NCBI GenBank assembly: GCA_964477705.1
Contig: CAYZFJ010000003.1
Coordinates: 1-50,645, forward strand
Length of the DNA: 50,645 bases
Direction: 5' to 3'
Source of the DNA: an uncultured Myxococcia bacterium
GTDB lineage: Bacteria; Myxococcota_A; JAVEVO01; CAYZFJ01
How positions within the stretch are numbered: position 1 is the first letter of the stretch; every line of letters begins with the position of its first letter. Below are positions 15,604-48,534 of this stretch, one piece after another. Made by a program: the position numbers and the translations under genes. Under the pieces are notes generated by a model. That model did not search any database. It was not told the DNA's origin and saw nothing but the letters and a program-made list of their open reading frames with translations.

Positions 15604-15615
15604 TCTGGAGGCGCA

Positions 15616-17320: not shown

Positions 17321-17356
17321 GGCTGCTTCCTTGCACAAGGGAGCAGCCTTTTTTTG
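17321..17356 (+). terminator. Intrinsic terminator of the ribosomal/alpha operon
   Basis: GGCTGCTTCC-ttgcacaa-GGGAGCAGCC stem-loop followed by a T-run, about 55 nt after the rplQ stop. Confidence 0.85.
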
Positions 17357-17443
17357 TTTCGATACTTGATTTTTCTCATTTGTTTGGGTTACAGCAAGTC
17401 TTTGGTCTGTCTGTCTTGTTTAGATTGTGATGCTGCCGAAGGG

Positions 17444-23361: not shown

Positions 23362-24459
23362 ATGAACTTCAGCGATAAGAACCATAAGGAAACGGAAGGT
23401 GTTTGGTGGCCTGAAAACCTTGAAAACCCTGAAAAACTCACCGGTTCTGAATTGGACAGTCAGGGCTTCGAGCAACAGGCGCAGGATCAGGAGCAGTGGC
23501 TGGGGCAGGGGCAGGGGCAGGGGCAGGGGCAGGAGACCTTTATCAATGGTTGTGCAATGGCTGACAATTTCCCTGGCGAAGCACTGACCATGGAAGAAAT
23601 CCTGGACCAGGAGTTCTGGAAGGGGCCAGAGGTCAATCTTGAGCATGACCATGGGCATGATCTTAGTGTTGATGGTGACAACCATGATGCAGGTGTCAAA
23701 CCTGTACGACCTCTAGTGGTGCTTGGCATAATCTGTGCTGTGACACTGGTGCTGGTCGGGGTGGGCGTGCTAACTTCGAGCAGTCTTTTGGATGACTCTA
23801 AGAATGATTTGCCGGGGGGAGCATCCTTAGCCACAGGCGCAGGTGAATCCGCCAAGTCAGCATCTGGAAAAGCCAGTATGGTGGACAATGATCTAGACCC
23901 GTCTGGGGATGCTTTGTCAGATGGGGTGGCTGCAGCAGCGGTGGAAAAAACCGATGATGATCCTGCAATGAAGGATTCATCCGTAGTGGCAGATTCCTCA
24001 GTCGCTTCAGGTGGAAAGACAGCAAAAAAGCGCCAAGGAGCAGCCTCTGCCGGTGGTGGGCAATCCTCATCTGGATTGTCCTACTCCATTGTAAGCGATG
24101 ATGGGATGGTTACAAAGAAGCGTTCTGCCTTGCCCTCCGCCCAGGCGTCCCGTGACTATCTTCCCGATACCCTTACTACTAACCAGATAATGAATGTGAT
24201 TCGGACAAAACGCCGTTCCCTCCAGTCTTGCTTTGAACGTCAGCTTCGCAGGGAAGGCATGCTCGGTGAGCAGAAGACAACTATTAAATTTGAGATCGGA
24301 CAGCAGGGGAACACGGGCAGGATTACCGTTGAGGGAGGAGGAGATAACTCGATATTTTCCCAGTGTGTGGAACAGCAGATCAGACGCTGGAAATTCCCCC
24401 CATTTTCCGGTGCCCCGATCCCAGTTGAATACCCGATTCTGTTGACCGCTACCCACTAG
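23362..24459 (+). CDS. Bitopic membrane protein with TonB_C / AgmX-PglI-like C-terminal domain
   Basis: Acidic N-terminus with a GQ repeat, one TM (PLVVLGIICAVTLVLVGVGVLT), a low-complexity linker, and a C-terminal pattern I.NVIR.....L..CFE..L.....G....IKFEI...G......V.......F..CVE..IRRWKFPPF.G....V.YP. Confidence 0.6.
   Translation: MNFSDKNHKETEGVWWPENLENPEKLTGSELDSQGFEQQAQDQEQWLGQGQGQGQGQETFINGCAMADNFPGEALTMEEILDQEFWKGPEVNLEHDHGHDLSVDGDNHDAGVKPVRPLVVLGIICAVTLVLVGVGVLTSSSLLDDSKNDLPGGASLATGAGESAKSASGKASMVDNDLDPSGDALSDGVAAAAVEKTDDDPAMKDSSVVADSSVASGGKTAKKRQGAASAGGGQSSSGLSYSIVSDDGMVTKKRSALPSAQASRDYLPDTLTTNQIMNVIRTKRRSLQSCFERQLRREGMLGEQKTTIKFEIGQQGNTGRITVEGGGDNSIFSQCVEQQIRRWKFPPFSGAPIPVEYPILLTATH
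23502..23531 (+). repeat. In-frame hexanucleotide repeat (GGGGCA)x5 encoding (GQ)5
   Basis: Read directly as ggggca x5 inside the 23362 ORF. Confidence 0.9.
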
Positions 24460-24567: not shown

Positions 24568-25002
24568 ATGAATCGTTGGGTTGTGCCACTGTTCATTCTA
24601 TTATTGCTGGAGCTTACCGGATGTGCGCCCGTTCTGGGTGTGTCTGCAATCGGAAGGGCCGAGCTCGCCATTGAGGCAGCCACACTGGCGGGGAGCAGGG
24701 AGCATGCCCCATATGAATACACTGCAGCCAAGTTGTATTACGACAAGGCCAGGGAGAAACAGAACAGATCCCAGTTTGGCATGGCCCGCAATTATGCACA
24801 AAAGGCCCAGAGTTTTGCCCAGAAAGCCAGAGTGATGGCAGAGGAGCGTTCTGGGGAATCTAAGGTCAATGTGCCGACTGGAAGCTCACCCGCAGTTAAT
24901 GATGGTGCACATGGCAGCGGCCAGGCGGGGGCCTTCTTCAGGGATGTAGATGGTGGGGGCATGGCACCGGTAACACCAGGTAGGACTGATGGAACAGATT
25001 AA
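24568..25002 (+). CDS. DUF4398-like lipoprotein
   Basis: Signal plus lipobox LELTGC. Helical [34 protein letters not shown]...ARNYAQKA resembles DUF4398. Start is ATG 24568 or GTG 24556. Confidence 0.65.
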
Positions 25003-26269
25003 ACACAAATTATCTGGCCTGGTGATGCTGTTGGCGGTTCTTCTGTTTTCCCAGACTGCCCTCCTCCTGACAGGTTGCAGTATGGGGATGAAGGCCAGCC
25101 TTAAAGGCGAACAGGTTTATCGGGAGCTGTCTGTAATTCAGGACAGAGCCTACCGGTGTACGCCGGAGGAGCTGGCGAAAGCTACTGTTCATCTGGAATT
25201 AGGTCGGGCTGAATTGGAGCGTGGAGACCTGCTCAGGGGGCAGGAGCATATGGATCAGGCGCTCGCCAGCGTGAGAGCTGCAGAGGTTGGGTCCAGGGGG
25301 ACCGAATGCAGGGCTCCTATGCCTCTACTTGTTGTGGATACGGATAATGATGGTGTGGAAGACCAGTTCGACAACTGCCCGCCCATCTATAATCCCGATC
25401 AGGCGGATATGGACGGGGATGGGGTTGGAGATGCCTGTGATCTGGACATGGAAGGGGACGGTGTGCCCGATGATCGTGATAATTGCCCATCCTTGTATAA
25501 CCCTGATCAGGCGGATATTGATGGTGATGGCATGGGTGATCTCTGTGACCCTGACATGGATGGCGATATGGTGCCCAATGAAGAGGACAACTGCCCCATG
25601 GTGGCAAACTCCGATCAGGATGACATGGATGGCGATGGAGTAGGAGATGCCTGTGATCCGGATATGGACGGTGATAGGATTCTCAATGATGTAGATAATT
25701 GTCCCTTCGATGTTAATCCGGATCAGGCTGATCTGAATGGGGACGGGATCGGGGATGTGTGCGATTTCGATATTGATGGAGATGGGGTTGATAACGCTGA
25801 GGACAATTGTCCCACCATTTATAACCAGGAGCAGGAGGATGCAGATGCTGACGGGGTGGGGGATGCATGTGACCCTGATTATCTCTCCTCACTCAAGCAG
25901 TCATACCAGTTGGTCAAGCTTACCGCAGAAAAGATTGAGCTCTCCCAGAAGGTCCATTTTGGTACGGCCAAATCGGTGATCCTGCCCCAGTCTTTTGCCT
26001 TGTTGAACGAGGTCGCCAGGGTTCTGCTGGACCACCCACGGTTGAGGGTGAGGATTGAGGGACATACTGACGATAGGGGCAAGGCATCCTACAACCTCAA
26101 GCTTTCCCAGGAGAGGGCAGATTCGGTTCGGATTTACCTGATTAGACAAGGAGTTGATCCCCAGCGGATGGATTCCGTTGGGTTCGGCATGGAGCAGCCC
26201 ATCGGTGACAACCGCACGACACAGGGACAATCCGATAATAGACGTGTTGAATTTGTTGTCTTAAACTGA
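24989..26269 (+). CDS. OmpA-family lipoprotein with thrombospondin type-3 (TSP3) Ca-binding repeats
   Basis: Lipobox LLLTGC. At least 7 repeats of D.D.DGV.D..DNCP...NPDQ.D.DGDG.GD.CD. C-terminal OmpA-like domain (...[10 protein letters not shown]...YN..LS..RA..V...L...G......GFG...P...N......NRRVEF). Confidence 0.85.
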
Positions 26270-28554: not shown

Positions 28555-31500
28555 ATGAGCGGTGTTGGAATGATTCCCAGTGGTTGTGAAAGGGGCGGAA
28601 AAAACTCGCTTTATAAGAAGGTTGACTCTGGTACACCTTTATCCACGGAGCAAGTGGTAGCCCGACGATGGGTTCTGCCAGTTCTGTGTGATGCAGTTTT
28701 GATTGCCATTCTCGTGGTGGTCATGGATTTGGTGGTGCTGCTCTCTGGCAAAGGACCCCTCTTCAGCTCTGTTCGGGAGCCGGTACTTCTGTTTCCTGCC
28801 TTGCTCGGTATCTCCTGGCCGTGGATGCTGCCTCTCCTTTTTCCCATACTTGCCATTGTGGACAGAAGCAGGAGATGGTTCTGTAGAGCAGGGACCGGGC
28901 GATTGGCGTTCTGTTTGAGAACAGTTCTTATGGCGATTCCTGCACTGTTCTTTTTTCACTGGGTCATATGGGATGTGCTGCAAGGGCCTACTTTTGCTTT
29001 CCTGCCTGGGCTGCCAGTGCTGGGTTGGCTGGGAGCATCTGTTGCTGCTGTGCTGTGGTCGATTGGAGTGGTGGGTGCGGCTGATGGAGGGGTTGGTTCG
29101 AGATGGCGGTGGACAATCCTGTCTGGCGGTGGAAAGCTGGCAGCAGGCGCTCTGTTGCTGGTTGTGGCATTGGGCTTGCATTGGTTCGACGGCAACGTTC
29201 TGATCAGGCTCTATCCAAGGCTGCATGCCACGGTTTTTCTTTTCACCTGCACCCTGCTGTTTATGGTTGTTGTGGTTAGTGGGCTGGGACGTAGGCTGGC
29301 TGTATGGATGGGCCGGTTCTGCGGGGGCGGGGGGAGCGGGGGGGCCGGGGATAGAGGACGGGGCAAGGTGGGTGTGGGTGTGGGTGCGGGCCTGCTTGTG
29401 GTGATTCTGTTGGCTGGTTCTGCTTTTCTCGGTTCGGACTACTTTTTGAACAGTCAGGCGAATTTGCGGTTCCAGATTGTGAGTAAATGTCCTGGGGCTG
29501 GCAAACTGGCACTGATGCGGAATCGAGCCTCAGACTTGCTCTTTCAGGCTGTTCTGTTTGCTGGTGGGACAGGGGGCACCCATGGAGATGGAGGCCGCGG
29601 ACTGTGGCTGGGATCAGCAGGTGAAGACCCAGGCCCAGGTCAAGGCCAAGGCCCATACGGTCTTATTGGAGATTATGATGGGGAGCTTTGGCCTTATGGT
29701 CCAGGCGATGGTGGCAGTCAAGTTGGCGATACCAGTGAGTCTCCAGATGAGGAGGAAGCTGCAGCAGGTGGGGAGAGCAGGGGAAGCGGGGGTGGAGCTG
29801 CCAGTGATACTGCATTAGATGGAGCGCATATAGCAAAGTACGCCCTCTCAGGTATGCCAAGGCTTCGTCCCAATGGGAATAACGTGGTGCTGGTTACCAT
29901 GGATGCTGTCAGGGCATCCCATTGCAGTGTTTATGGGTTTGAGCGTCAGACTACCCCCTTCTTAGAAGAGCTTGCCAAAGAATCAGCATTGTTTATCAAG
30001 GCATATACCCAGTCCAGTCACACCTCATACTCCCTCTCCATGCTTATGTCTTCCAGATATATGTATCAGCCAGAGACCCACAATCTGGCCGAGCTGCCAA
30101 CCATGGCCAGCGTACTTGGGAAGGCAGGGTATGCCACCATGGCGGTTTACTCCCAGTACCTTTTCTTCAGTAGAGAGGATCTGTTTCAACCGATGATTGC
30201 ACGGCGGTTTGGGTTTGAAAAAACCGATAACAGGCACCTTGATGGCCGTCAGGCTGTGGATAGTGCCATTGAGATGCTTGATGAGCATTTTGCCGGGCAG
30301 GGTAGGGAATTTTTCTTGTGGGTTCATCTTTTTGATGCACATGAGCCCTATGATACTCAAGAAGAGTTCTCATTTGGGAATAAGGACGTTGATCGATATC
30401 ATGGGGAGATCGCCTTTGCAGATAGCCAGATTAGAAGGCTGGTGGAGTATCTGAACACACAGGGGGCCGTTGGGGAGAACACCGTGCTGGTGGTGGCAGC
30501 GGATCATGGGGAAGAATTTGGCGACCATGGGGGGGCCTATCATGGATCTTCTCTATATGATGAACAGGCGCGGGTTCCTCTGTTGATCAGGTATCCGGCT
30601 GGATTAGAGAAGCAAAAGGAGAAGGCGAAGGAGAAGTCCCTGTCATCTCCAACTGGAGAGGCAGGAGTAGAGGTTGATGCTGCTCTGGTGGTGGATGAAC
30701 CTGTTCAATTGATAGATATTTTCCCTACCCTGCTCACTTTGACGGGCCTAAACCCACCACAGGGATTCAAATTGCAGGGTACAGATCTGTCACCTGCACT
30801 CCTCCATGGGAGAGAGATTAACCATGGCGCCTATGGGGCTGTACTTACTAAGCGTATGGTAGTGTCTGGACAGCATAAGTTCATCGTTAATTTTGCTACT
30901 GACACCAGAGAACTGTACCACCTGGCCGATGATCCGTGGGAGCGCCGCAACGTGTTGGATCAGGAACCGGAGCGGGCCAAAGTGTTGGAGCGAATGCTAT
31001 CTACATGGGTTGATGGGGTGCTGGTAGGAACCCGTGACCCGGTACGCTGGGGGCTTGCTCTTGCAAGGCTGGGCGATCCCAGATCTGTTCCCATTCTTAG
31101 GGCTATCTTAGCTAATAGCCGGCTTGCTACTGAGATAAGGATTGAGGCAGTATTGCTTCTTGGGAGTATGGGTAACGGGGACCCTGAAACAGTGGCAGCG
31201 CTCCAGCAAGTATCAAAGAGTGGGAATCTGGTGGGTGACTGTGCGGTTGTGACCCTTGCCATGTTGGGCGTGGAAACCGACCAGGTACGGTTGGGCAGTC
31301 TTCAGGATGCCAGCGCCATTGCTGTCAAAATGGGACGGAATGAGACAGACTGGCCCCGTCAGATTGCTCGCAGGGCGGCGATTGCAAGGGCTAGGACGGG
31401 GAATGTGGATGCAGTTCCATTTTTGCAGAAAATCCTGGATGAAGAAGACAGGGATTTCGAGGAGGTTGCCCTGGCAGCCCTCGGTTCTCTCAAGGCTCCT

Positions 31501-32343
31501 GAGGCCCTGGCACCGTTGCTCTATGCTCTGCAGCCCTTGAGGACCAGGCATTGGGCAGTGTGTGCGCTAGGGGAGTTGGGGCTCCCCGATGGAGCTGTTC
31601 CTCTGCTCCAGATTGCTCGGAATGATCCCTATACCAATATTCGAGAGTCAGCCATTTGGGCTCTGGGCATGATCGGGAACAGAATTACACCTGCTGCCGG
31701 GGAGATGCTCCATGAACTAATTTTGGACGAGCCCTACCTGAAGGGCGGAGCCCAGACCCTCATAAATACGGGGCTGGTTGCGGTCCATGATGCTGGTGCA
31801 AAGGGGGCTGCGGGGGGGAGAGGTGGGAATCTACAGCCATCAGTCCGTGGGGCTGGAGTGGTGCTTGGAGCTGGTACTCTGGTCAGTGCTGGGAGAGGGC
31901 TGACCGAGGCAGGGGCAGGGGCAGGGGGTGACAGGATTGGCGGCGCCTTTCGGGTGGGTGGTGCCAATGGTGCCAGTCTCTGTCTTGAGGATGGAGGGGA
32001 AGGGTATTTGGTCATGCCGGCCCTGGGGACTGGTGATTATAATCTTTTGGCATCAGCATTCTTAGCAGATGGGGTGGGTGAGGGTGACCTCAAGTTCATG
32101 GTGGTTCAGGGGGCTGGAGCTCATGGGGCTCTCCCGGGGAAGGCTGCCATGAAGAAGGCTGTGTGTGGTGGGGAGCTTCATCTGCCTGATTCTACTATGA
32201 GAGGGTGTGATGGCAAAGAGACCTTCAGGTTGCGGCGGGGTAAGCATCTGGTCGCAGTGAAGAATCATGGAACAACGGTTTGTCTGGAGAGTGTGGTTCT
32301 TCTCAAAGCTCGCAAGGGGAAAGGTAAGGGAGCAGGAAAATAG
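28555..32343 (+). CDS. Polytopic membrane protein with sulfatase-fold (LtaS/EptA-like, Thr nucleophile) domain, HEAT repeats and CBM-like tail
   Basis: Several TM segments in aa 38-300. Sulfatase-fold motifs VVLVTMDAVRA, QSSHTSYSLSMLMSSRY (Thr where sulfatases have Cys/Ser) and VVAADHGEEFGDHGG. HEAT/PBS-lyase-like repeats (LGDPRSVPIL..., NDPYTNIRESAIWALGMIG). Confidence 0.7.
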   Translation: MSGVGMIPSGCERGGKNSLYKKVDSGTPLSTEQVVARRWVLPVLCDAVLIAILVVVMDLVVLLSGKGPLFSSVREPVLLFPALLGISWPWMLPLLFPILAIVDRSRRWFCRAGTGRLAFCLRTVLMAIPALFFFHWVIWDVLQGPTFAFLPGLPVLGWLGASVAAVLWSIGVVGAADGGVGSRWRWTILSGGGKLAAGALLLVVALGLHWFDGNVLIRLYPRLHATVFLFTCTLLFMVVVVSGLGRRLAVWMGRFCGGGGSGGAGDRGRGKVGVGVGAGLLVVILLAGSAFLGSDYFLNSQANLRFQIVSKCPGAGKLALMRNRASDLLFQAVLFAGGTGGTHGDGGRGLWLGSAGEDPGPGQGQGPYGLIGDYDGELWPYGPGDGGSQVGDTSESPDEEEAAAGGESRGSGGGAASDTALDGAHIAKYALSGMPRLRPNGNNVVLVTMDAVRASHCSVYGFERQTTPFLEELAKESALFIKAYTQSSHTSYSLSMLMSSRYMYQPETHNLAELPTMASVLGKAGYATMAVYSQYLFFSREDLFQPMIARRFGFEKTDNRHLDGRQAVDSAIEMLDEHFAGQGREFFLWVHLFDAHEPYDTQEEFSFGNKDVDRYHGEIAFADSQIRRLVEYLNTQGAVGENTVLVVAADHGEEFGDHGGAYHGSSLYDEQARVPLLIRYPAGLEKQKEKAKEKSLSSPTGEAGVEVDAALVVDEPVQLIDIFPTLLTLTGLNPPQGFKLQGTDLSPALLHGREINHGAYGAVLTKRMVVSGQHKFIVNFATDTRELYHLADDPWERRNVLDQEPERAKVLERMLSTWVDGVLVGTRDPVRWGLALARLGDPRSVPILRAILANSRLATEIRIEAVLLLGSMGNGDPETVAALQQVSKSGNLVGDCAVVTLAMLGVETDQVRLGSLQDASAIAVKMGRNETDWPRQIARRAAIARARTGNVDAVPFLQKILDEEDRDFEEVALAALGSLKAPEALAPLLYALQPLRTRHWAVCALGELGLPDGAVPLLQIARNDPYTNIRESAIWALGMIGNRITPAAGEMLHELILDEPYLKGGAQTLINTGLVAVHDAGAKGAAGGRGGNLQPSVRGAGVVLGAGTLVSAGRGLTEAGAGAGGDRIGGAFRVGGANGASLCLEDGGEGYLVMPALGTGDYNLLASAFLADGVGEGDLKFMVVQGAGAHGALPGKAAMKKAVCGGELHLPDSTMRGCDGKETFRLRRGKHLVAVKNHGTTVCLESVVLLKARKGKGKGAGK

Positions 32344-32614
32344 ACGACAGCATGATAGATCCACATTGTGCGCACTATTACAGACCAGACTTTTACCGTT
32401 CGTCCCCAATAGTTGACTGTCTGCGATTGGCTCGGGAATGTGCCATTTGTTCTGCACAACAGAACAAGGCTGGAGATTTGTGCTACAGTAGCTTGAAATA
32501 TAGATGGGGATCGGGCGCAGGAGCTAGTGAAGCTGGTCAGATGGTGTTGGATCCCAGACGTGTGAGTCCCTCCCATCTGTTCTTCTCGGTTCATTAAACA
32601 GGAAGGGTAAAGCC

Positions 32615-35600
32615 ATGCTCCAAACTGCACAACGCATGAACACCTGGGAAGCAATTGTTGACCAGTTGAAGAGCCTGCCTGATGAGCCCGAATCCAGTGT
32701 GCGGTCTGGAATCCTTGCAGAACTGTTTGCTCACCTTGCCTTATTGGGCCAGGAACAGGAGATTCCTGATTTACGCATGCGCAAGAGCCATTCCGATGAA
32801 TTGCTTATATGGCTGCATCAGGAGATTAGAAGGATTCTGGACAAGCTGCCTGTGGACCCTGACACTGATGAGTTCTATTTCTTGCGGGAAGTGGTTAAAA
32901 GGCTTCCTCTGCGGGTGACCGCCAACACCCTGATTGAAGATATTCGCAGTGCTGCCGAGGAGTTCGAAGAAGCTCGCCTCGATAGTGATCCCCTCCGTTC
33001 TTTTGCTGCTGATCTCCGTAAGGAGACCCACCGGAGGCTCTCGCCCCGAATTCTGCACACTTTTGTGAAGCCTTATCTGGCGCTGGTGGATCATGGAGAT
33101 CCGGAACCAATCAAACAGGCCGGGTATCCCTTGGTGGCTTTGAAGTTCAACCGTGCTGAAGAAGGAGAGATGTTCCTCAGGCTCGGGCATGAGCTTGATC
33201 ACAATTTGTCTTATCTATGGGATTACGAGAATGGTGACATTCAGAATCTCAGTATCAGTATGGCCAACCAGATTCCACTTTTTGAGAGGTGCTTTCTGCA
33301 GCACGAGATTCACGCTATCCTGGAGCTCCTCAAGCCCCAATACCTGGAATCCAGGGAAGTCCTCTTCGATCTTCTCAAGCGGCTGGTGAGCATTCAGCAT
33401 TTTCTGCGAACATCATTCAGAGAAGGCCGTCTCCATCTCCTCGATTATCTTCTTGTTGATCTCGATATTGGCAGATTGGTTTTTATTTTTGCGGCTGACC
33501 TGAGCAATCGGTTTCTGGCAGAGATTACTGCGGGTAATCTTCGAGATTCTTTAGCACTTTTGAGAGAGATGCTTGCCATCATCGCCACCAGAGGCCCGGC
33601 GGTGTGGAAGCTTGAAGGGGTTATGACTGAGCTGGATCGGCTCCGTGAGGATCCTGTGCTCAACCATAGCCATGTGCGGCGCTGTGTTCAAGCCATCGTG
33701 AATGATGTGCAGTCGTACCTGCAGACCTACATCATATCGCGTATGGGGCCAATTCTCAACTGGACCTTTGAGGTTTACCCGGTCCCCACCACCAGACTGT
33801 CTCCGGCCAAGACCAGGTTCTTTAATAATCTGATCCGCAGTACCCATTTTCATCTGCTCACTGAATTTGCCGAGAAGGTGCTCTCTTTTCTGGATCACGA
33901 GATGTCTGCCCAGATCGAGGAGAGCCTTCTTTATAGCTACCGTTTGGGGCAGGCCGGGCAGCCGCCCCAGCAGCCAGAAAATATTGAGGAGATGGTGGCC
34001 TGTACCTGGGAGTCTGCTCCTGCTGCTTTAAGGCCGTTTCTGGGGGGTAAGGGAAATAGCCTCCTTGATATGGTAGCCCTTGGTCTGGCGGTGCCGCCTG
34101 CCTTCATTCTGGGACTGCCCCTTGGGGACAGGTTTCTCTCTCCCGATGAGCCCCAGGAGCCTTTGTTCAATCTGTTGCAGGACTGGGTGCATAAGCTGGA
34201 GAAGCAGACCGGCAAACAACTGGGTTGCCCGTCCAATCCGCTCCTGGTGTCGGTGCGATCCGGTGCCCCATGGTCACTGCCGGGCTCCATGCTCACCCTG
34301 CTTAACGTGGGCCAGACCCGGGAGGTGATTGATGCCATCGCATCCCGTCATGGCAAACGGTTTGCTCACAGTATTCATGCCCGGTTTCTGCGCAATTGCT
34401 TGCAAGCCATGGGGCAGAAGGTGTCTCCCAAGGATAATAACCTGTCCCGGCTTCGTGCCATGGTAGAATACCACACAAACAGCCAGTTTCTTTGGGACCC
34501 AATGGCCCAGCTTGAGCAAGCGGTCAGGTGGGTGTTCGCATCGAGCCGCAACAGTGTGGCTGGTGAACTGCTCTCGCATATGTCGCCGGGCGACAGGCCG
34601 GTTACTGCTGTGACTGTGCAGCAGATGGTGTTCGGCAACCGAAACAGGGACAGCCTGAGTGCGGTGTTGATTACCCGCAATCCTGTCACTGGAGCCGATG
34701 AGATGGTTGGCGAGTTCAGAGAGGAGACCCAGGGTGAGGAGGTGGTGATGGGGCAGGTTGTCCCCAAGCCTTTGGAGAAAATGAAGCCCCAGTATCTGGC
34801 CGAGCTGCGACGGATGAAGGAGGTGCTCGAAGGCTTCTACCACAGGGAGCTTAATCTGGAAGTCACCGTGGAGAATGGACAGCTTTGGATTCTGCAGGCC
34901 AGGCGAACCAATATTGGGACCTGGGCCAGTCTGGTGGTAAATGTTGACTTTCTAGCCAGAGGGCTGCTCACCCTCAAGGATTTTCATCACAGGCTTGATA
35001 AACTGCGTACTGTCCACGAGGCGGTTGCCCTCCCCCGCCTTGATGACTACATGTATGCGAACTTCAACCCCCCTATCGGGTCAGGCATTCCAATTCACAG
35101 TGGTATTGTTACCGGCACACTGGTGCTCTCGCAGGCTCGGCTTGATGAAGCTAAGACTCGGCGGGAGACCGTTGTGTACATGTCTTACAATACCAAGCCT
35201 ACGGATTTTGCCATCATGAATGCGGCCCATGCACTGGTGAATATCTATCCTGGTCGCACTTCCCATGCGGCCATTATGGCGATGACTCTCAATAAGCCAT
35301 GTATTGTGGGTATCCAGAATGCAGAGATAGATGCGCCTGGAGGGCGGGTGGTTTTTCGGGGACAACCGGATGTTGCGGTGCGGGAAGGGGAGCGAATCAC
35401 CATAGATGCCAATACTGGGGCCATTTACAGGGGGCTGGCGCCCATCAGCCCATGCTATGTGCGGCTCCATGATATTGCTTCAGCCATTGAAGGAGTCAGC
35501 GATGGGGCGAAGGCGGCTGAAATCCTCCAGCGAACCCTCCATGCTCACATGTCTGATTTGAGGCGGGAGACTGCTTTCGAGCGTTTTGCATGGACCCATA

Positions 35601-36856
35601 TCCCTCATGGTAAGCTGAGAGGCAAAAACGTGCTGGCTCGCCTAGATCTTAACGTGCGTCTGGAAGGCAGCGTTGTGGTGGATGCCCGCCGTATTGAGCA
35701 GGCTGTCCCCATCATTAAGGGGATTCTTGCGTCCAAAGGTACCCCGGTGGTGTTAGCACACCTGGGGGACCCTGCTTCAGAGGGGGTCCCGGGAATGACC
35801 AGGGAGGAGATCTATTCAATGTACAGCCTTAAGCCCGTTGCCAAGTACCTGGAGAGGTATTTCCCCGGGCTGATCTTTTTTCACGAGGCATCTATTGCCT
35901 CGTCGGGGCTCTTGCTCCACAAGGCTGATCTGGTGCCCGGCAAGGTTAATCTGCTCGAAAATCTCCGGTTTGCCAGTGGCGAGAAGGAGAATGATGAGGT
36001 ATTTGCCCGGGCCCTGATGTCTCTGTCTGACGGTGTTTTTATTAATGATGCCTTTAATGTGTGCCACCGTCACCATGCCAGCATTACCGGTATTCCCCGA
36101 TTTGCGGAGATCAGCGCCGCAGGGCCTCTGGTGCAGCGGGAGCTGGATGCTCTGCGACTGCTTCTGGTGGAGCCGGCCCAGCCTTTTGTGGCCATCATGG
36201 GCGGCAATAAGGATGCGGTCCGTATGGGCATGATGGAGTCTCTGCTCATGCGGGTGGATCGGATGATTGTGGGTGGCTCTCTAGCCTGTACCATGCTCCA
36301 TGCAGCCGGGTGTTCCATGGGGCGTACGTCTGTGCTGGAGTCGGTGGGGGATATTTGCCGTTCATTACTGACCAGATATCGGCATAAGATTATCTTTCCC
36401 CGTGATTTCAGGGTTTTGCGCGAGCATGAAGTGGGTTGCAGCCAGGCAGCAGCCGTCAAAGTGGTACCAGCCAATGCAGTCCCTAATGACTGCGTCTGTG
36501 TAGATGTCGGGCCAGGGACCAGGCAGGTTATGGAAGATGCTCTTCGAGATGCCCGCTCCATCATGTGGAGTGGCTCTTTGGGGCGTTATGAGCTGGGTGA
36601 CGTGGCGCCATCCACCCTTCGTCTGGCCAGGATGCTGGGCGATTATGCAGAGGGCGGTGCAAGGGTGGTTATCTGTGGGGGTGATACAGGGCTGGCGGCC
36701 CTGAATGCGGGAGCGGTTGATAAATATGAGCATGCATCTACCGGTGGGTCAGCGTTTCTGGAGTTCATGGGGCGTTTGACATTGCCTGGTATAGCTGCAC
36801 TGGATGCGGTGTCGCCCAAAGACCGGGAATCGGGAGCAAAGGGACTATTCTGTTAG
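32615..36856 (+). CDS. Fusion protein: unknown N-domain, PPDK-type ATP-grasp, phospho-His swivel domain and phosphoglycerate-kinase fold
   Basis: aa ~470-800: LGGKGNSLLDM, LLVSVRSGAPWSLPGSMLTLLNVG, VQQMVFGN, GEF..ETQGEEVVMG, EVTVENGQLWILQARR (PPDK nucleotide domain). aa ~815-945: PGRTSHAAIMA (His at 35264-35266). aa ~1000-1400: RLDLNV, AHLGDP, YSLKPVAKYLE, LLENLRF, INDAFNVCHRHHAS, AIMGGNK, IVGGSLA, DVGPGT, MWSGSLGRYE, CGGDT, HASTGGSAFLEF..G..LPGIAAL (PGK). RBS AGGAAGGG before the ATG. Confidence 0.8.
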   Translation: MLQTAQRMNTWEAIVDQLKSLPDEPESSVRSGILAELFAHLALLGQEQEIPDLRMRKSHSDELLIWLHQEIRRILDKLPVDPDTDEFYFLREVVKRLPLRVTANTLIEDIRSAAEEFEEARLDSDPLRSFAADLRKETHRRLSPRILHTFVKPYLALVDHGDPEPIKQAGYPLVALKFNRAEEGEMFLRLGHELDHNLSYLWDYENGDIQNLSISMANQIPLFERCFLQHEIHAILELLKPQYLESREVLFDLLKRLVSIQHFLRTSFREGRLHLLDYLLVDLDIGRLVFIFAADLSNRFLAEITAGNLRDSLALLREMLAIIATRGPAVWKLEGVMTELDRLREDPVLNHSHVRRCVQAIVNDVQSYLQTYIISRMGPILNWTFEVYPVPTTRLSPAKTRFFNNLIRSTHFHLLTEFAEKVLSFLDHEMSAQIEESLLYSYRLGQAGQPPQQPENIEEMVACTWESAPAALRPFLGGKGNSLLDMVALGLAVPPAFILGLPLGDRFLSPDEPQEPLFNLLQDWVHKLEKQTGKQLGCPSNPLLVSVRSGAPWSLPGSMLTLLNVGQTREVIDAIASRHGKRFAHSIHARFLRNCLQAMGQKVSPKDNNLSRLRAMVEYHTNSQFLWDPMAQLEQAVRWVFASSRNSVAGELLSHMSPGDRPVTAVTVQQMVFGNRNRDSLSAVLITRNPVTGADEMVGEFREETQGEEVVMGQVVPKPLEKMKPQYLAELRRMKEVLEGFYHRELNLEVTVENGQLWILQARRTNIGTWASLVVNVDFLARGLLTLKDFHHRLDKLRTVHEAVALPRLDDYMYANFNPPIGSGIPIHSGIVTGTLVLSQARLDEAKTRRETVVYMSYNTKPTDFAIMNAAHALVNIYPGRTSHAAIMAMTLNKPCIVGIQNAEIDAPGGRVVFRGQPDVAVREGERITIDANTGAIYRGLAPISPCYVRLHDIASAIEGVSDGAKAAEILQRTLHAHMSDLRRETAFERFAWTHIPHGKLRGKNVLARLDLNVRLEGSVVVDARRIEQAVPIIKGILASKGTPVVLAHLGDPASEGVPGMTREEIYSMYSLKPVAKYLERYFPGLIFFHEASIASSGLLLHKADLVPGKVNLLENLRFASGEKENDEVFARALMSLSDGVFINDAFNVCHRHHASITGIPRFAEISAAGPLVQRELDALRLLLVEPAQPFVAIMGGNKDAVRMGMMESLLMRVDRMIVGGSLACTMLHAAGCSMGRTSVLESVGDICRSLLTRYRHKIIFPRDFRVLREHEVGCSQAAAVKVVPANAVPNDCVCVDVGPGTRQVMEDALRDARSIMWSGSLGRYELGDVAPSTLRLARMLGDYAEGGARVVICGGDTGLAALNAGAVDKYEHASTGGSAFLEFMGRLTLPGIAALDAVSPKDRESGAKGLFC

Positions 36857-37066: not shown

Positions 37067-37399
37067 TTGCGACCACATAAATTTACTCTGCACATCAACC
37101 CGGAAGAAGAAACCGAAATCCGGGCAGGTATGAAAACCATCGACGCCCGGATTCAATCGGGCGACACCAGCGGACTCTCGGTGGGCGATTTAATCCACTA
37201 CAACAGTGCTGTTGTCCGGGTTCTGGGCATCAGACGTTATCCTTCATTTGAGGATCTGATTCATTTCGAGGACTTCAAAAAGGTGGTGCCATCGGCCCGG
37301 AGTGGTGGAGAAGCTTTGGAGAAGATGCAATCCAAGAACCGAATTGATGAGAAGGATCTGGGGGTGGAAGCCATTGAATTTGTGATTCTGGAGGGGTGA
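37067..37399 (+). CDS. ASCH (PUA-like) domain protein
   Basis: 110 aa, TTG start after GGAGG. The pattern F.L.I...E...I..G.KTIDARI......GLSVGDLI.........V.V.GIRRY.SFEDL resembles ASCH. Confidence 0.6.
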   Translation: MRPHKFTLHINPEEETEIRAGMKTIDARIQSGDTSGLSVGDLIHYNSAVVRVLGIRRYPSFEDLIHFEDFKKVVPSARSGGEALEKMQSKNRIDEKDLGVEAIEFVILEG

Positions 37400-37743
37400 T
37401 GGAGTTTGTAATTACAGGTGTTCGCAGGGAGCTGACCCCTGATCTTAAACAGTTCATCAACGATAAAATCAGAGAAAAGATTGTCAGGCATACAGACAAG
37501 GTTACCCTGCTAGAAGTATGGGTGGACAAGGAGTCTGCGCACCATGAGCAGGGGCTGGAGCGGGTGAGGGTTACGGCCTGGGTCCCTGGAAATGCTAAGA
37601 CCAGGGATGGGAAGAAGCGTCTTACAGTACAGGCGGTGGCCAACAATCTCCACGATGCGGTGAATATGGCATCGAAGACTATCATGAGGCGTATCCATGA
37701 CTGGGCAGATGAGACCAAACCAACTCGAAAGGCCCGGTCATAG
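37399..37743 (+). CDS. hpf: Ribosome hibernation promoting factor / RaiA family (short form)
   Basis: 114 aa, MEFVITGVRRELTPDLKQFINDKIREKIVRH.DKV....V.V..E.......V.V.........L.V.A...NLHDAVNMA..TIMRRI. TGATG overlap with the ASCH gene. Confidence 0.7.
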   Translation: MEFVITGVRRELTPDLKQFINDKIREKIVRHTDKVTLLEVWVDKESAHHEQGLERVRVTAWVPGNAKTRDGKKRLTVQAVANNLHDAVNMASKTIMRRIHDWADETKPTRKARS

Positions 37744-37819: not shown

Positions 37820-40684
37820 TCAGCGCTGGGTGAATCGGGCTGGACCACGATAGCCTGGTGGAACAGTACAGATGCTCTCCAGGAGCAGGTCCACTTCTTC
37901 CGCCATAGTGTCATCACCCAGGTCCAGGCTGTTAATGTTGTCCGCATCGATACGTATGCGGCCTACGCCCCCCTCTCCTCCTTGAGCTGAACCAGTATCG
38001 TCTACCTGAGCGCGGCTACCTCCGAGGGCAGAGATGGTTCCGCTCATGTTTATGGTTTGCCCCACCAGCCAGATAGTACCCCCAGCACCGCTGCCACCGG
38101 TCCCGGTTAATTTATTGACTCCCTGCTGGCCCTGTTCACCGTCTGCGGTCAAGGTGCCTGCAATGGAAAATTGTTCGGCAATAATGAAGATGATGCCGCC
38201 ACCATTGCCTCCTCTCCCTCCACGGCTGTCCACGGTGTCCGGGATGCTTGAGTCGAGCATGGTTCCGCCACCGTCCCCTCCGCCACCACCCATAAAGATG
38301 CGACCAAGCATATGATTGCCCGCCACCGGGCCACCACCGCCCCCGCCTCCGCCGTAACTGGCGCCACAGGAGCCGCCGCCAGTTCCACCCCTTCCTGTCT
38401 CACCGGCATTACTCACACTGGGGATGGTAGTATGGTCCGGGCATAGGCTGCTTCCTGGTTCTGAGCCGTTTCCGCCTGCGCCGCCCGGACAGGCGGCCGA
38501 GCCTCCTCCGCCCGCATGTTCGCCAGTCTTCCCAGCCAATCCTCCAGCGCCCCCGCTCTGCTCCAGGCAACTACCTCCACCCCCGCCACCCCCGCCGGAG
38601 CCATGGCCCCCGCCTCCTCCTGCCCCCGCCCGGCCCGCCTCGGCTCCACCAGAATGAATCCCTGAAGCGCCCCCTCCGCCCGCTCCTGTTCCTGCTGTTC
38701 CTGTAGTGAGGTGAATTCCTGCCATGGTGGCTTCACCGGCACCGCCACCCATGGAGCCTGGCTCCCCTGGTTCGCCACCTTTTTCAGCACCATCAGTCGA
38801 CAGGTAGTAGCACTCACCCCCAGTACCGCCCAATTCTGTTGCTGCTTCTTCGCCCTGGGGGACAATAGTCTCTCTAACACCACCACCGCCGTAACCGAGG
38901 CCTGCCACAGAGATCTGTCCACCGGATTCCACTTCAACAGGACCACTCACTTTAATGATGATTGCCCCGCCACCGCTGGGGCTGGTAGCGCCGTTCTGCT
39001 TGTTTCCCCCTCTGCCTTTGCCTTTGTCGCCGCCGTTACTGCTGTCGCCATTGTCACTGGTTGCAAGTGCGGGTTGAGCGGGGTGCCATGGGTCTGTAGA
39101 TAGAGTGCCACCATTTTTAACCACAAGCCCAGACAATTGGGGAACCCGCTGGACAATGGTGGTACTGCCTGCATCTGTGCCGGGGTATTCGGTGGACAGG
39201 GGATGGGTGAGCACAACTGTGAACCCGATTTGATCGGGCTGGTCCGCGATGATCTCCTGGATAATGGCAAACTGGTACTGTCCGGGGTTGTTGGTCTCCT
39301 GCGGGTTGGCATTTTGTACAGTGGTGGAGAGCCAATGGACGAACACCTGGTCGCCGGGAGCCAGCCCAGCGGGTGTGCCGGCCAGAAGGAGACGGTCTGT
39401 TGCTGCGGGAGCAGTAGCACTAAGGGTCCACCTTGGGGCCAGTGGGGTTGAGCGATCTACGTCTGGTCCTTGACGGGTTAGCATCTGGAGGGTGGGGATG
39501 GTGGTGGCCATGTTGAATGCGCCTTCTACAGTAAGGTGCCCATCCATACCCGTGCCGGCTTCTGCCTGGATACAATTAAAACCATCTCCCAGCCATCCAT
39601 CCACGCAGTTGCAGCTGTATGAACCAGAGCTGTTAGAACACTCAGCCTGAACGTGGCAGCGGTTAAGGGACTGATCTGCACATTCATTCATGTCGGTGCA
39701 GGTGTTGAGCGAGACGTCCGGGTTCCAGTAGCCCGGCAGACATGCGATCTGGCAGCCCCCCTCTGTGCATACGGCCACCCCATTGTCAGCAGAAGGGCAG
39801 ACATTGCCGCATCCACCACAATTGTTCTTGTCTGTGAGTGGGTCTGTGCAGAGATCAGCGCAAACCAGCTCTCCTTCCAGGCACTGGATGGAGCATTCCC
39901 CCTCAGTGCAGATGTATCCCTGAGAGCAACCTGCACCGCAATGTCCACAATGGGACCAGTCGCTGAGAAGGTTGACGCAGCTCCCACCGCAATCGGTAAG
40001 CCCAGTCTGGCAGGTGAGAAGGCACTCGCCCTCTGAGCAGACGGTGCCGGGTTCGCATTGAATGCCGCATTGGCCACAATTAGTCCAGTCCGACCCCAAG
40101 TTTACGCATGAGCCCTCACAGTTGGTAAGCAGACTGGGGCAGGTGAGACTGCACAACCCCAAAGAACAGACCTCGCCGTCTTCGCATTCATTACCGCAGG
40201 CTCCACAGTTTATAGGGTCTGTTTGAATGTTGATGCAGGTATCTCCGCACCGGGTGAAGTTGAGGGGGCATGAAATCTGACATTCCCCCCGGATACACAC
40301 CTCGCCGGTTGCGCATTCGTTGCCGCACTGGCCACAATGGAAGGTGGAGCGTTGCAGGTCATAGCATCCGCCGTAGCACTCTGTCTGGTTTCCTGGACAG
40401 AGAATGGCACATTGGCCTGCAAGACAAACCTCACCAATGATGCATGACACGCCACACCCGCCACAGTGCTCCATATCTGTTTCAGGATCCACACACCGGT
40501 TGTCGCAGGGGATCAGGTTGTTTGAGCAGTCCAGGGCTGCGGCATCACTGAGGGCCCCGTCGTTATCATTCTGGTTGGAGCCTGTATCTGCCACTACGTC
40601 AATATCAGTGGTGTTGGCACTGGTCCCATCACACCCGGCCGGGAAGAGGGCGAGTATTGCCATGGTCATGACTGGAATAAACAT
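37820..40684 (-). CDS. Large lipoprotein: six 8-Cys CGxCG repeats, a cbEGF-like module, a beta-rich domain and a ~350-aa Gly-rich region
   Basis: I prefer the internal Met (MFIPVMTMAILALFPAGC, lipobox) over the track start at 40909. Six ~43-aa repeats C.{6}C.{3}C.{9}CG.CG..C..G..C..G.C. DMNECADQ...C.C..G. Long GGxGG tracts. The track gives 1029 aa and my call gives 954 aa. Confidence 0.75.
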   Translation of the reverse strand: MFIPVMTMAILALFPAGCDGTSANTTDIDVVADTGSNQNDNDGALSDAAALDCSNNLIPCDNRCVDPETDMEHCGGCGVSCIIGEVCLAGQCAILCPGNQTECYGGCYDLQRSTFHCGQCGNECATGEVCIRGECQISCPLNFTRCGDTCINIQTDPINCGACGNECEDGEVCSLGLCSLTCPSLLTNCEGSCVNLGSDWTNCGQCGIQCEPGTVCSEGECLLTCQTGLTDCGGSCVNLLSDWSHCGHCGAGCSQGYICTEGECSIQCLEGELVCADLCTDPLTDKNNCGGCGNVCPSADNGVAVCTEGGCQIACLPGYWNPDVSLNTCTDMNECADQSLNRCHVQAECSNSSGSYSCNCVDGWLGDGFNCIQAEAGTGMDGHLTVEGAFNMATTIPTLQMLTRQGPDVDRSTPLAPRWTLSATAPAATDRLLLAGTPAGLAPGDQVFVHWLSTTVQNANPQETNNPGQYQFAIIQEIIADQPDQIGFTVVLTHPLSTEYPGTDAGSTTIVQRVPQLSGLVVKNGGTLSTDPWHPAQPALATSDNGDSSNGGDKGKGRGGNKQNGATSPSGGGAIIIKVSGPVEVESGGQISVAGLGYGGGGVRETIVPQGEEAATELGGTGGECYYLSTDGAEKGGEPGEPGSMGGGAGEATMAGIHLTTGTAGTGAGGGGASGIHSGGAEAGRAGAGGGGGHGSGGGGGGGGSCLEQSGGAGGLAGKTGEHAGGGGSAACPGGAGGNGSEPGSSLCPDHTTIPSVSNAGETGRGGTGGGSCGASYGGGGGGGGPVAGNHMLGRIFMGGGGGDGGGTMLDSSIPDTVDSRGGRGGNGGGIIFIIAEQFSIAGTLTADGEQGQQGVNKLTGTGGSGAGGTIWLVGQTINMSGTISALGGSRAQVDDTGSAQGGEGGVGRIRIDADNINSLDLGDDTMAEEVDLLLESICTVPPGYRGPARFTQR

Positions 40685-41323
40685 GGCTGTTCGTTGTGGG
40701 GTCAGACGTCTGCGCTTGAGATGCCTGTTATAAAAAGAAAAAATCATCACTATTTCCGAAATAAAGTCATAGAGGTACATGGCTCTGGTGAGTCGGGAGC
40801 CCAGGTGGAATCCTGGTGCCTTCAGGTCGGCGCAGTGTTTTTGAACGGGAGGCTGTTCTGTGGTCGCCGGTTCAAATAGCGCAGTGTGCCGAGAACACCT
40901 GTACGTCATGATACCCTACTGTTTTCTCAGCTTCTGGTCAATGGGATGGATGGCTCATATTCTTCCCATCCAGCCCTGGCAACACTATCTAAGACTCCAG
41001 CCCCATCGTTAATGCTCTCAATTGCTTGCAGACGCTGCCGCTCTCTCTTGGGGAGGGTGTGGGTGTCCTCCAATTCATGGGCTTTTATTGCATGTAGGAT
41101 ATTGTGTGCTAATGTGGGGGCAGGTAGGGGATTGGTGGTCGGTTTCGTCGACTGAACAGGGGGGGGGGAGCGAGTGGGTGTGAGTGAGTGGTGTAAACAG
41201 CCTTCATCATATTGAGGTGGCTATCTGCAAAATTCAACTTTTCTGGTGGATGACTAACGGTCCTTCTCGCCGGGGTGAATATTGCAGCGCGCTGCCGCTG
41301 ATTGGACAAGAGGTCAAATCAAA

Positions 41324-44390: not shown

Positions 44391-45854
44391 TTATGGCATG
44401 GGAGCGTTTGCAGTTTCCTGCTTCAGGTAAGCAGCCGGATCACGCTGGAGCTGGCGGACCACATGCTCGCCCAGTATAAACGACACGTTGTAGCCATCCA
44501 CGCCCGCATAGTATTCGGCTGTTTCAGGCTGGTACATGCTGCCGATGGACAGGGTGTAGGTGCTGCCATCATCCATGGTGAGGATTACTTTTCCGCCTGC
44601 TGGTTTAGATCCTAACCCGCTTTGTGATTCTGAAACCCCTTCAAGCACCTCTGCAGCTTTCAGGTTGCTCAGAGTATTGATCAGCCCATTCAGGTGGGCC
44701 ATGTTAAGCACCTTGCCCTTGAGAATGGCAGGCTCAGTTGCACTCCATCCCTTCTCGTCACGCTGGAAGGTGAGCCCAATCTTGCCTGCCTTATTGGTAA
44801 CGGCAATAGAGGTTAGCTTATCCCTGGTGAAACTGAGCATGTTCTTACTGCGCAACTGGGAAGATCGTTTTTTAAGCCCTTCTAGTGCGTAGTCTTTAAC
44901 TATGTATAGGGCATTGCCGCCTTCCAGGGTTACATACCAGTCATTCTCATACTGACCATCAAGAGCGTTGGGCCCAACCTTGGCACCGATGATCATGATG
45001 ACCGGGTCTTTGCCAATTCGATTGATGGTCAGTCGGGTTGAATCAGGGGTGAATCCGGCATCTTCGAACTTGATGTTGTCGGCAAAATCCGTGGCCCTCA
45101 GGTTGAGCAGGGTGCCCAGCATGGTCCCAATGGCCGAGCTGTCCCCATCGGCGGTAACTGGTTCTGTCAATTGCCATGACTCGGCCTTACCCTCACCTGT
45201 CGTGGACCCAGTATCCGTCTCTGTGTCCGCCTCCACCGCCGTCCGGACAAGCACGATCTTCTCTGTGGGGTTGGAGATCTCCAGCCCGGTAACAGATTCT
45301 CTTTCTACTGCCAGAATCTTCTTCTCCCGCCAGTCATTAACTTCCTTGTCAATCTGCCATCGCAGGTTGGTTCGGGCCCTATACACATGCTGGTCCCCCG
45401 GCCGCATCACGAAGGTCCGGTTGCCCACGGCTTTGCCTACCAGTATGTCGAACAAGGGCTTGTCTTCGGCGGTCATTTTCAGGCTGACTCTCTCGCCATC
45501 ATTGAGCCCATACCTGGCAAGCTCATCCTCACTGACCGGAATCTTCAGATCCATCCCGATTGGTTCGGTGAATAGCTTGAGCAGGTTCTCGACGTTGCTG
45601 TCATTGGCCTTAAATTGGATGGGGCTCTCCATCTTCCAGGAGGCTGCCGCATCTCCAGCAAGCTCGGGCTTTCCGTCACGGACCAGTCGAATAATGGTGC
45701 CGGACTTATTTATCTCAATCACATCCGCAACCCCACTTGCCCTGGCCAACTCAAAATCGAGCTTCTCTGCCTTGTCGGGGAGGAACTTTGGAATCAGTAC
45801 CGCTGCCAACAGGATTAGAAAGATACTCAGTGCGATTACTGTATTCTTTTTCAT
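44391..45854 (-). CDS. DUF4340-like protein (accessory to the GldG-type ABC system)
   Basis: ATG at 45854 gives MKKNTVIALSIFLILLAAVLI (signal anchor). It lies immediately downstream of the gldG-like stop. The repeated beta-rich modules resemble DUF4340. Confidence 0.65.
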   Translation of the reverse strand: MKKNTVIALSIFLILLAAVLIPKFLPDKAEKLDFELARASGVADVIEINKSGTIIRLVRDGKPELAGDAAASWKMESPIQFKANDSNVENLLKLFTEPIGMDLKIPVSEDELARYGLNDGERVSLKMTAEDKPLFDILVGKAVGNRTFVMRPGDQHVYRARTNLRWQIDKEVNDWREKKILAVERESVTGLEISNPTEKIVLVRTAVEADTETDTGSTTGEGKAESWQLTEPVTADGDSSAIGTMLGTLLNLRATDFADNIKFEDAGFTPDSTRLTINRIGKDPVIMIIGAKVGPNALDGQYENDWYVTLEGGNALYIVKDYALEGLKKRSSQLRSKNMLSFTRDKLTSIAVTNKAGKIGLTFQRDEKGWSATEPAILKGKVLNMAHLNGLINTLSNLKAAEVLEGVSESQSGLGSKPAGGKVILTMDDGSTYTLSIGSMYQPETAEYYAGVDGYNVSFILGEHVVRQLQRDPAAYLKQETANAPMP

Positions 45855-45855
45855 T

Positions 45856-47655: not shown

Positions 47656-47675
47656 CGTGAATTCCTCCGCTCAAA

Positions 47676-48401: not shown

Positions 48402-48534
48402 GTGAAAGCTCCTTGTTCTTGTTCAGAAACAAAGCATTAACTAAATTGCCTGAACTCACCCAGACCCACCAAACCTGATCATGACAGGAGCAGCCGTCGT
48501 CCATGGCGGCAGACGGTCTACTGTGTTCCCATAG

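Follow-up and report, generated by a model that had tools for sequence, protein, structure and literature searches.

A conserved swivelling-histidine dikinase fused to a phosphoglycerate kinase fold, with a candidate 3-phosphoglycerate acceptor lobe

A single open reading frame (ORF) at 32615..36856 (+) of contig CAYZFJ010000003.1, from an uncultured Myxococcia bacterium, encodes a 1413-amino-acid (aa) protein, hereafter the query. The window is the whole 50,645-nucleotide (nt) stretch of this contig that was analysed. The query joins, in this order, a helical N-terminal domain, an ATP-grasp domain of the pyruvate phosphate dikinase (PPDK) type, a swivelling phospho-histidine domain, a linker and a phosphoglycerate kinase (PGK) fold. 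This architecture is colinear in 84 protein clusters and 67 genome loci, and the protein is a real, conserved member of an uncharacterised family of swivelling-histidine dikinases. Residue comparisons suggest that the acceptor site may be the 3-phosphoglycerate (3PG) lobe of the fused PGK fold, a reading that we prefer but hold tentatively.

Domain architecture, distribution and integrity of the ORF

The ORF has an ATG start, 1413 codons plus a stop and no internal stop codon. A ribosome-binding site, AGGAAGGG, was read directly from the sequence at 32600..32607 (+), 7 nt 5′ of the ATG, and an intergenic gap of 272 nt separates the gene from the one upstream. An earlier reading of the window, made without database searches (the sequence-only reading), had described an uninterrupted ORF with a good ribosome-binding site, and both points were confirmed.

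Pfam places PGK at aa 1000–1385 (profile positions 5–376 of 379, E 8.6e-89) and PEP-utilizers (PF00391) at aa 852–935 (E 4.3e-15), and it also matches PPDK_N (E 6.7e-21). The same scan of the query returned no PEP-utilizers_C (PF02896), the TIM barrel for phosphoenolpyruvate (PEP) and pyruvate that is present in all true PPDKs returned by the homologue search. In a sequence search of the PDB, aa 472–947 align with residues 18–516 of Flaveria PPDK (E 1.9e-56), and aa 1000–1397 align end to end with Thermotoga maritima PGK (E 3e-64). The PGK part is 32% identical to human PGK1. These searches bear out the four-part domain parse of the sequence-only reading, including its placement of PGK in the C-terminal ~400 aa.

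Curated NCBIfam models did not accept the query. It scored 289 bits against a cutoff of 843 for the PPDK model TIGR01828, 288 against 456 for the truncated-PPDK model (VadK/PRK05878 type), and 273 against 883 for the PGK/TIM model; other swivelling-histidine families gave marginal scores of 20–60 bits. Since every model scored far under its cutoff, the query belongs to none of the named families. Truncated PPDKs in particular consist of the ATP-grasp and His domains alone (~490–530 aa) and score over the cutoff, and the query lies outside this group. Its domain order is nevertheless that of the swivelling-histidine dikinase class, in which an ATP-grasp domain, a mobile phospho-His domain and a separate acceptor module lie in one polypeptide. 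In PEP synthase, alpha-glucan water dikinase, rifampicin phosphotransferase, phenylphosphate synthase and PigC/RedH, the ATP-grasp domain loads the mobile His and a specificity module receives the phosphoryl group. We know of none among these enzymes that has a PGK fold as its specificity module.

Among 5.8 billion proteins searched, the three Pfam domains of the query recur together in 84 clusters at the 90% identity level. Their proteins are 1170–1455 aa long and 37–48% identical to the query over 83–99% of its length. The next matches below this family were ordinary PPDKs (E 1e-56). A profile of the N-terminal domain, scanned against one genome per GTDB species, identified 67 loci, all in metagenome-assembled genomes (MAGs), and the fusion is encoded there, almost without exception, by one ORF with the same domain order. 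The 67 loci belong to Spirochaetota (Treponemataceae and Rectinemataceae), Riflebacteria/Ozemobacteraceae, MAGs labelled Elusimicrobia and one Wallbacteria. RpoA encoded in the window is 70–76% identical to Myxococcota proteins, so the query, which sits on a long branch, extends the family to another phylum.

The sequence-only reading had left open whether the architecture was already catalogued. It recurs in all 84 clusters, named only automatically as 'phosphoglycerate kinase', '3-phosphoglycerate kinase/phosphohistidine swiveling domain-containing protein' or 'pyruvate orthophosphate dikinase'. The automatic names of the types 'phosphoglycerate kinase' and 'pyruvate phosphate dikinase', carried by more than 80 clusters, are probably both wrong. 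Known PGK fusions listed in a review are PAS-PGK and PGK-CNB-HTH, both of kinetoplastids, and the PGK-TIM fusion of Thermotoga; a dikinase partner is absent from that list (PMC7729029). The statement that no PPDK-PGK fusion had been described therefore holds as far as it was checked, by a full-text literature search and the automatic names only.

The chance that the ORF is an artefact, whether a misassembled chimera, a frameshift-joined gene pair or a decaying pseudogene, is very small. What speaks for decay is that the query deviates at 14 of 238 near-invariant family columns, including an Asp to Asn change at position 747 (D747N). However, the other long-branch members P0002 and P0033 deviate at 22 and 19 of these columns, and the query retains every catalytic residue except D747. 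The frame is also unbroken behind its ribosome-binding site, and independent assemblies supply colinear homologues from 84 clusters and 67 genomes. Misassembly and frameshift were rejected on these grounds. The join at 35450–35620, which the sequence-only reading had flagged as a possible chimera, is excluded as such by the same colinear order and a constant linker of 51–54 aa in the 84 independent clusters.

Dikinase module, PGK lobes and the phosphoryl acceptor

The PPDK-type ATP-grasp domain (aa 466–800, 34010..35014 (+)) was delimited by Pfam, NCBIfam and the PDB alignment, and the swivel phospho-histidine domain (aa 801–945, 35015..35449 (+)) by its PEP-utilizers match. The linker that follows (aa 946–999, 35450..35611 (+)) is partly helical and takes the place of the PPDK linker to the TIM barrel. 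For residue conservation, the 84 clusters were aligned with MAFFT and mapped to the nucleotide-site residues of PPDK. The equivalents K479, R548, E749, Q761 and R763 are invariant (84/84), as are the glycine-rich loop S-x-P-G-x-M-x-T-x-x-N-x-G and, in 84/84 clusters, the motif P-G-R-T-S-H884-A-A-I around the swivel histidine. The His884 codon lies at 35264–35266, where the sequence-only reading had placed it, and all the motifs quoted there were found, including the substituted PGK motifs HLGDP, WSGS and GGNKD. Within the PPDK ATP-grasp set (equivalents of K22, R92, D321, E323, Q335 and R337), the query departs at one position only. Position 747 is Asp in 83/84 clusters and Asn in the query (AAT, 34853–34855, one transition from GAT).

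PPDK (EC 2.7.9.1; C. symbiosum 1KBL, Flaveria 5JVJ) has the same ATP-grasp/swivel-His order, nucleotide-site residues and T-S-H motif, at 30–33% identity over ~480 aa. It differs in having a TIM barrel where the query carries PGK, and the query has an extra N-terminal domain of 465 aa. The dikinase module is nearer PPDK than PEP synthase, both in NCBIfam (289 vs 43–58 bits) and in the PDB search (E 2e-56 vs 8e-9). This closeness favours the use of inorganic phosphate (Pi) with release of pyrophosphate (PPi) rather than the use of water, and the module probably catalyses that type of reaction. The idea that the Arg of the 'GRTSH' motif pairs with the R65D change described below, specifically in this family, was dropped, because PEP synthase and PTS enzyme I usually carry GRT[SC]H.

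AlphaFold2 was run on aa 462–1413 with 13 homologues and gave a model with pLDDT 79.9 and pTM 0.71. Foldseek matched its dikinase part to PPDKs (E 7e-36) and superposed its PGK part on open-form bacterial PGKs (TM 0.85–0.91, rmsd 2.8–4 Å). Confidence was low over the His domain (aa ~845–892, pLDDT 34–48), which in a model of this kind is consistent with a mobile domain that has no fixed position.

The PGK fold comprises an N-lobe that binds 3PG (aa 1000–1189, 35612..36181 (+)), a C-lobe that binds nucleotide (aa 1190–1372, 36182..36730 (+)) and a C-terminal segment (HASTGGSAFLEF..LPGI) followed by a short non-conserved tail and the stop codon (36731..36856 (+)). The C-terminal segment is 86–96% identical within clades. 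PGK residues are given below in human PGK1 numbering, mapped through alignments to T. maritima PGK and human PGK1. Relative to PGK (EC 2.7.2.3), the query has the complete two-lobe fold and a largely kept 3PG basic patch. The fusion family differs from PGK in carrying Asp or Glu for R65, in an eroded nucleotide lobe in most members and in the dikinase upstream.

Most ligands of 3PG are kept in the N-lobe. The query retains R1009 (R21), D1011 (D23), N1013 (N25), R1026 (R38), H1049 (H62), R1118 (R122) and R1152 (R170). Across the family, about 100% of clusters have R21, D23, N25, H62, R122 and R170, and 75/83 have R38. R65 is replaced by D1052 in the query (codon 35768–35770) and is Asp or Glu in 83/83 clusters. 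A family-specific insertion of 8–9 aa with a conserved S-R-E-E lies C-terminal to the HLGDP motif that holds the R65 position. The query also carries G166N and T167V in the 3PG pocket.

The C-lobe has fared differently among clades. In the query, K1199 (K215), E1326 (E343) and G-G-D1357-T are retained; K219 is changed to R1203, N336 to S1319, P338 to S1321, A214 to N1198 and G396 to S1379. The set of PGK nucleotide and phosphoryl-transfer residues (K215, K219, N336, E343, G372-G373-D374-T375 and G394-G396) is thus incomplete, and the lobe is partly eroded. Clade A (29 clusters, Riflebacteria-type) has canonical K215, K219, N336, E343, GGGDS and STGGG. In clade C, whose 4 clusters branch inside the A clade, D374 and the pair G395-G396 are missing. 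The query forms an intermediate group (I) with P0002, P0033 and P0048. Clade B (46–47 clusters, spirochaete-type) has lost the entire set, with K215E/D, K219Q, S-E-E-E-K for G-G-G-D-T and G-P-R for G-G-G. Judged by these replacements, the nucleotide lobe of clade B is catalytically dead.

Scores against T. maritima PGK show the same asymmetry. Median N-lobe scores are 115 bits in clade A, 108 in C, 107 in the intermediates and 90 in B, and median C-lobe scores are 171, 128, 116 and 34 bits, respectively (128 bits for the query itself). The median C-lobe length is 182 aa in A, 186 in C, 170 in the intermediates and about 144 in B. The match of a clade-B member to the NCBIfam PGK profile ends at position 218. 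Within-clade identity of the C-lobe is 0.80 in A and 0.38 in B. In clade B the linker (0.41) is variable like the C-lobe; the other parts are at 0.64 (N-terminal domain), 0.60 (ATP-grasp), 0.75 (swivel), 0.60 (PGK N-lobe) and 0.86 (PGK C-terminal tail). Neighbour joining on the dikinase module, with PPDKs as root, places the fusion family as a monophyletic group on a long stem, divided into two clades, A+C and B+intermediates. This topology implies that the nucleotide lobe was eroded at least twice.

Such asymmetric retention is the pattern expected if phospho-His had taken over as donor and had made PGK-bound nucleotide dispensable, and the assignment of the PGK lobe as acceptor is drawn from it. 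From the residues, we read the PGK-bound nucleotide as dispensable, and the 3PG site together with the phospho-His engine as the conserved functional core. Further observations support the PGK fold as acceptor. It occupies the position of the PPDK acceptor barrel behind a linker of fixed length, and the architecture is under selection, being kept as one ORF in 84 clusters and 67 species-level genomes. The dikinase residues are intact, and the AlphaFold2 model combines an ordinary open PGK fold with a His domain whose low confidence points to mobility.

In the proposed mechanism, the ATP-grasp domain would use ATP and Pi to load His884 with the β-phosphoryl group and would yield AMP and PPi, a step suggested by the conservation of all PPDK nucleotide-site residues and the TSH motif. 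The His domain would then swing on its two linkers to the PGK cleft. There the equivalents of R38, D23, N25, H62, R122 and R170 would hold the acceptor, and the carboxylate of 3PG, or of a very similar compound, would take up the phosphoryl group, giving 1,3-bisphosphoglycerate (1,3-BPG). The net reaction would be ATP + Pi + 3PG <-> AMP + PPi + 1,3-BPG. The helical N-terminal domain could act in regulation, oligomerisation or docking, and its role is the weakest part of this explanation.

Textbook standard free energies are −45.6 kJ/mol for ATP to AMP + PPi and −49.4 kJ/mol for 1,3-BPG hydrolysis. Computed from these values, the proposed reaction lies at about +4 kJ/mol, compared with about +19 for PGK and +16 for PPDK in the same direction. 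Being near equilibrium, it would be reversible, and it would be pulled strongly to 1,3-BPG if PPi were hydrolysed. It could run in gluconeogenesis, pulled by a pyrophosphatase. It could also run in glycolysis as a PPi/AMP-recycling counterpart of PGK, much as fermenters that depend on PPi use PPDK in place of pyruvate kinase.

If the PGK lobe is the acceptor, the family would catalyse a new reaction at the 3PG/1,3-BPG step, coupled to AMP + PPi and parallel to that of PPDK at the pyruvate/PEP step. To our knowledge, the 3PG/1,3-BPG step of glycolysis and gluconeogenesis is considered invariant, with PGK as its only enzyme. The bookkeeping of energy yield would then change for anaerobic Spirochaetota, Riflebacteria and their relatives. 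The family would also be a natural experiment in which the nucleotide lobe of a kinase was made redundant by a fused phosphoryl-delivery engine, with the intact, partly eroded (query) and dead stages preserved in living lineages.

Several observations weigh against 3PG phosphorylation in the PGK cleft. The Asn747 of the query stands where the Mg/ATP motif 'DIEFTV' of PPDK has its Asp. R65, which in PGK binds the 3-phosphate of 3PG, is Asp or Glu throughout, and clades B and I carry G166N, T167V and A171R, so the true acceptor may not be 3PG. The nucleotide lobe of clade A is fully canonical and is the most conserved region of that clade; its ATP/ADP site, on this conservation, is clearly still used, and the simple model needs no such site. 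The N-terminal domain and dikinase exist together without PGK and keep an Arg/His/Ser cluster there, so the phosphoryl group might go elsewhere. Across the 67 loci, no conserved neighbour ties the gene to glycolysis or gluconeogenesis. The full-text literature search returned no description of a dikinase-PGK fusion or of a PPi-dependent PGK.

The replacement of R65 raises the question of whether the same swivelling-histidine mechanism serves an acceptor other than 3PG, one that fits an N-lobe pocket without R65. Such a hydroxy-acid or phospho-acid could be glycerate, 2-phosphoglycerate, or a sulfo- or phosphono-analogue. The universal Asp/Glu, the S-R-E-E insertion after it and the G166N, T167V and A171R changes of the B/I clade are in keeping with this idea. 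However, all the remaining 3PG ligands are kept, G166 and T167 are retained in clade A, and loss of R65 need not abolish the use of 3PG. Yeast PGK mutants R65Q/A/S are active and lose just anion activation. A different acceptor is unlikely.

The intact nucleotide lobe of clade A bears on a second alternative, a relay with two donors in the members that keep this lobe (clade A and possibly the query), or a PGK of the cell with a built-in dikinase bypass. In the relay, 3PG/1,3-BPG in the PGK cleft would shuttle the phosphoryl group between His884~P and ADP/ATP, for a net AMP + PPi <-> ADP + Pi. Clade A holds all PGK catalytic residues and has the C-lobe as its most conserved region, and the query retains K215, E343, GGDT and a C-lobe that still scores 128 bits. 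Set against this are the substitutions of K219, N336, P338 and G396 in the query, the conjectural nature of the net reaction and the 47/84 clusters without a nucleotide site. As an account of the lobe-keeping members the relay is improbable. The sequence-only reading had offered a His-P to ADP relay as one outcome; the loss of nucleotide-site residues in those 47 clusters rules it out as a family-wide function and leaves it for the query and clade A.

A combined scheme is slightly less probable. Here clade A, perhaps with the query, would work two donors on one bound 3PG as a pyrophosphate:AMP phosphotransferase, and the spirochaete-type clade would be a plain 3PG,phosphate dikinase. We know of no enzyme for AMP + PPi <-> ADP + Pi. 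If the scheme were true, the second half of the relay would be gone from the spirochaete-type clade, which would release or consume free 1,3-BPG, an undescribed reaction of central metabolism.

Helical N-terminal domain and relatives without PGK

The N-terminal domain (aa 1–465, 32615..34009 (+)) had no match in Pfam, NCBIfam or the PDB by phmmer and profile searches. AlphaFold2 models it as all-helical, with 21 helices (pLDDT 87.8, pTM 0.84), and a Foldseek search of the PDB returned no match (best E 0.07, TM ≤ 0.18). It would be a new all-helical fold, modelled with confidence, and it marks a wider, unstudied group of barrel-less dikinases.

A profile of this domain, searched exhaustively with HMMER against 1.84 billion representatives, matched just 40 proteins. 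Beyond family members and fragments, ~13 proteins of 900–1150 aa match the whole domain (E 6e-16 to 4e-4). These relatives (P0253–P0277, including P0256, P0260, P0266 and P0268) come from Desulfobacterales and Planctomycetota MAGs and have the order helical N-terminal domain, PPDK_N, PEP-utilizers. Nine were scanned by Pfam, which detected neither PGK nor a TIM barrel in them. Full PPDK_N and PEP-utilizers matches were obtained for 5/9, of which four stop within a few tens of residues past the swivel domain; the other 4/9 had a partial or no PEP-utilizers match. Most of the relatives examined retain GGK[GA] and G.TSHAA.

The relatives share with the query the N-terminal domain over its full length and the dikinase module, without PGK. 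Their dikinase modules are nearer to true PPDK (439–539 bits) than those of the fusion family. Of 61 family-invariant positions in the N-terminal domain, 10 are common to the relatives, including R91, R111, R135, H139, S143, D282 and R408. This Arg/His/Ser cluster looks like a binding site for an anion or a phosphoryl group, going by residue type. The occurrence of the N-terminal domain and dikinase without PGK indicates that they are the older unit, to which PGK was later appended C-terminally. The sequence-only reading had noted helical sequence of unknown family. The domain indeed has no database relative; it is also an old partner of the dikinase and could provide a rival acceptor or target site that was overlooked there.

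These proteins bring in a third alternative, which is possible although doubtful. The unit of N-terminal domain, ATP-grasp and swivel His could be a metabolite-sensing histidine (di)kinase that autophosphorylates, with the PGK fold as a 3PG sensor; the phosphoryl group would be received by a partner protein, or by a site on the N-terminal domain or a ligand bound there. About 13 distant proteins that end after the swivel domain and keep GGKG and G.TSHAA fit this account, as do the seven named residues common to both architectures. A precedent is VadK (Rv1127c), a barrel-less PPDK derivative with ATP- and Mg-dependent His autophosphorylation that regulates the methylcitrate cycle (PMC13400623). 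VadK/PRK05878-type proteins resemble the query in having lost the TIM barrel and kept the ATP-grasp and catalytic His, but VadK has ~490 aa and neither the N-terminal domain nor a C-terminal enzyme fold, whereas the query has 1413 aa and both extra domains. Multidomain, catalytically 'dead' PGKs are known in kinetoplastids (PMC7729029), and keeping just the ligand lobe of PGK suits a sensor as well as an acceptor.

A sensor, however, has no need of PGK at the exact PPDK acceptor position behind a fixed-length linker, or of the fully catalytic-type PGK residues kept in clade A, and no conserved partner gene lies beside the fusion. The carboxylate-positioning R38 is present in 75/83 clusters, although R38 would also serve ligand binding. 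The 3PG lobe as acceptor is still the reading that we prefer. The inference of the sequence-only reading that PGK is the acceptor thus stands in part: the dikinase residues and the 3PG lobe are conserved and the nucleotide lobe has decayed in most members, and the N-terminal domain is a possible rival acceptor or target site.

The genomic context of the closest relative of the query and of the proteins without PGK was uninformative. At one locus (L069:8001–11273, n = 1), a gene for such a protein lies divergently beside a canonical 924-aa PPDK.

Gene neighbourhood and other features of the window

For the neighbourhood analysis, the ORFs of the 67 loci and of the window were clustered. One generic family occurs in 11 loci; every other neighbour family is limited to at most 5/67. 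Shared neighbours reflect local synteny of close relatives (MFS-like, PAS kinase, GlmS-like, PfkB-like, formate-THF ligase and PanB) and have no functional theme. The flanks of the examined loci contain no stand-alone PGK, PADLOC gave no anti-phage defence match, and the sequence around the fusion gene has no convincing promoter or terminator signals. The fusion gene looks stand-alone.

The upstream gene (28555–32343 (+)) encodes 1262 aa with a sulfatase domain at aa 443–814, C-terminal HEAT/PBS-lyase repeats and ~440 unassigned N-terminal residues. Two small ORFs with a 4-nt overlap (37067–37743 (+)) begin 210 nt downstream of the fusion gene. The second (115 aa) resembles a ribosome hibernation factor (HPF-like; Ribosomal_S30AE, E 2e-7), and the first has no family. 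A convergent gene at 37820–40909 (−) encodes a 1029-aa Cys-rich protein with five plant-type Stig1 repeats and a calcium-binding EGF domain, a mix unusual for a bacterium. Its stretch has 60% GC, compared with about 52% around it.

The contig has about 52% GC and is from a Myxococcota-like bacterium. Its first part (1–17264 (+)) is a fusA / S10-spc-alpha ribosomal-protein region (EF-G, L4, L2, SecY, Adk, Map, RpoA and L17), followed by a TonB-dependent receptor at 17354–19681. An OmpA-family protein with five thrombospondin type-3 repeats lies beside a TonB_C protein (24989–26269 (+) and 23362–24459 (+)). Four genes at 44391–49476 (−) encode a DUF4340 protein, an ABC_transp_aux/DUF7088 protein, an ABC-2 permease and an ABC ATPase. 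In the first 38 kb, GC skew stays markedly positive (0.07–0.23, apart from a dip to 0.02 at 20–22 kb) and nearly all genes lie on the + strand; beyond 38 kb the skew is ~0 and the genes switch to the − strand.

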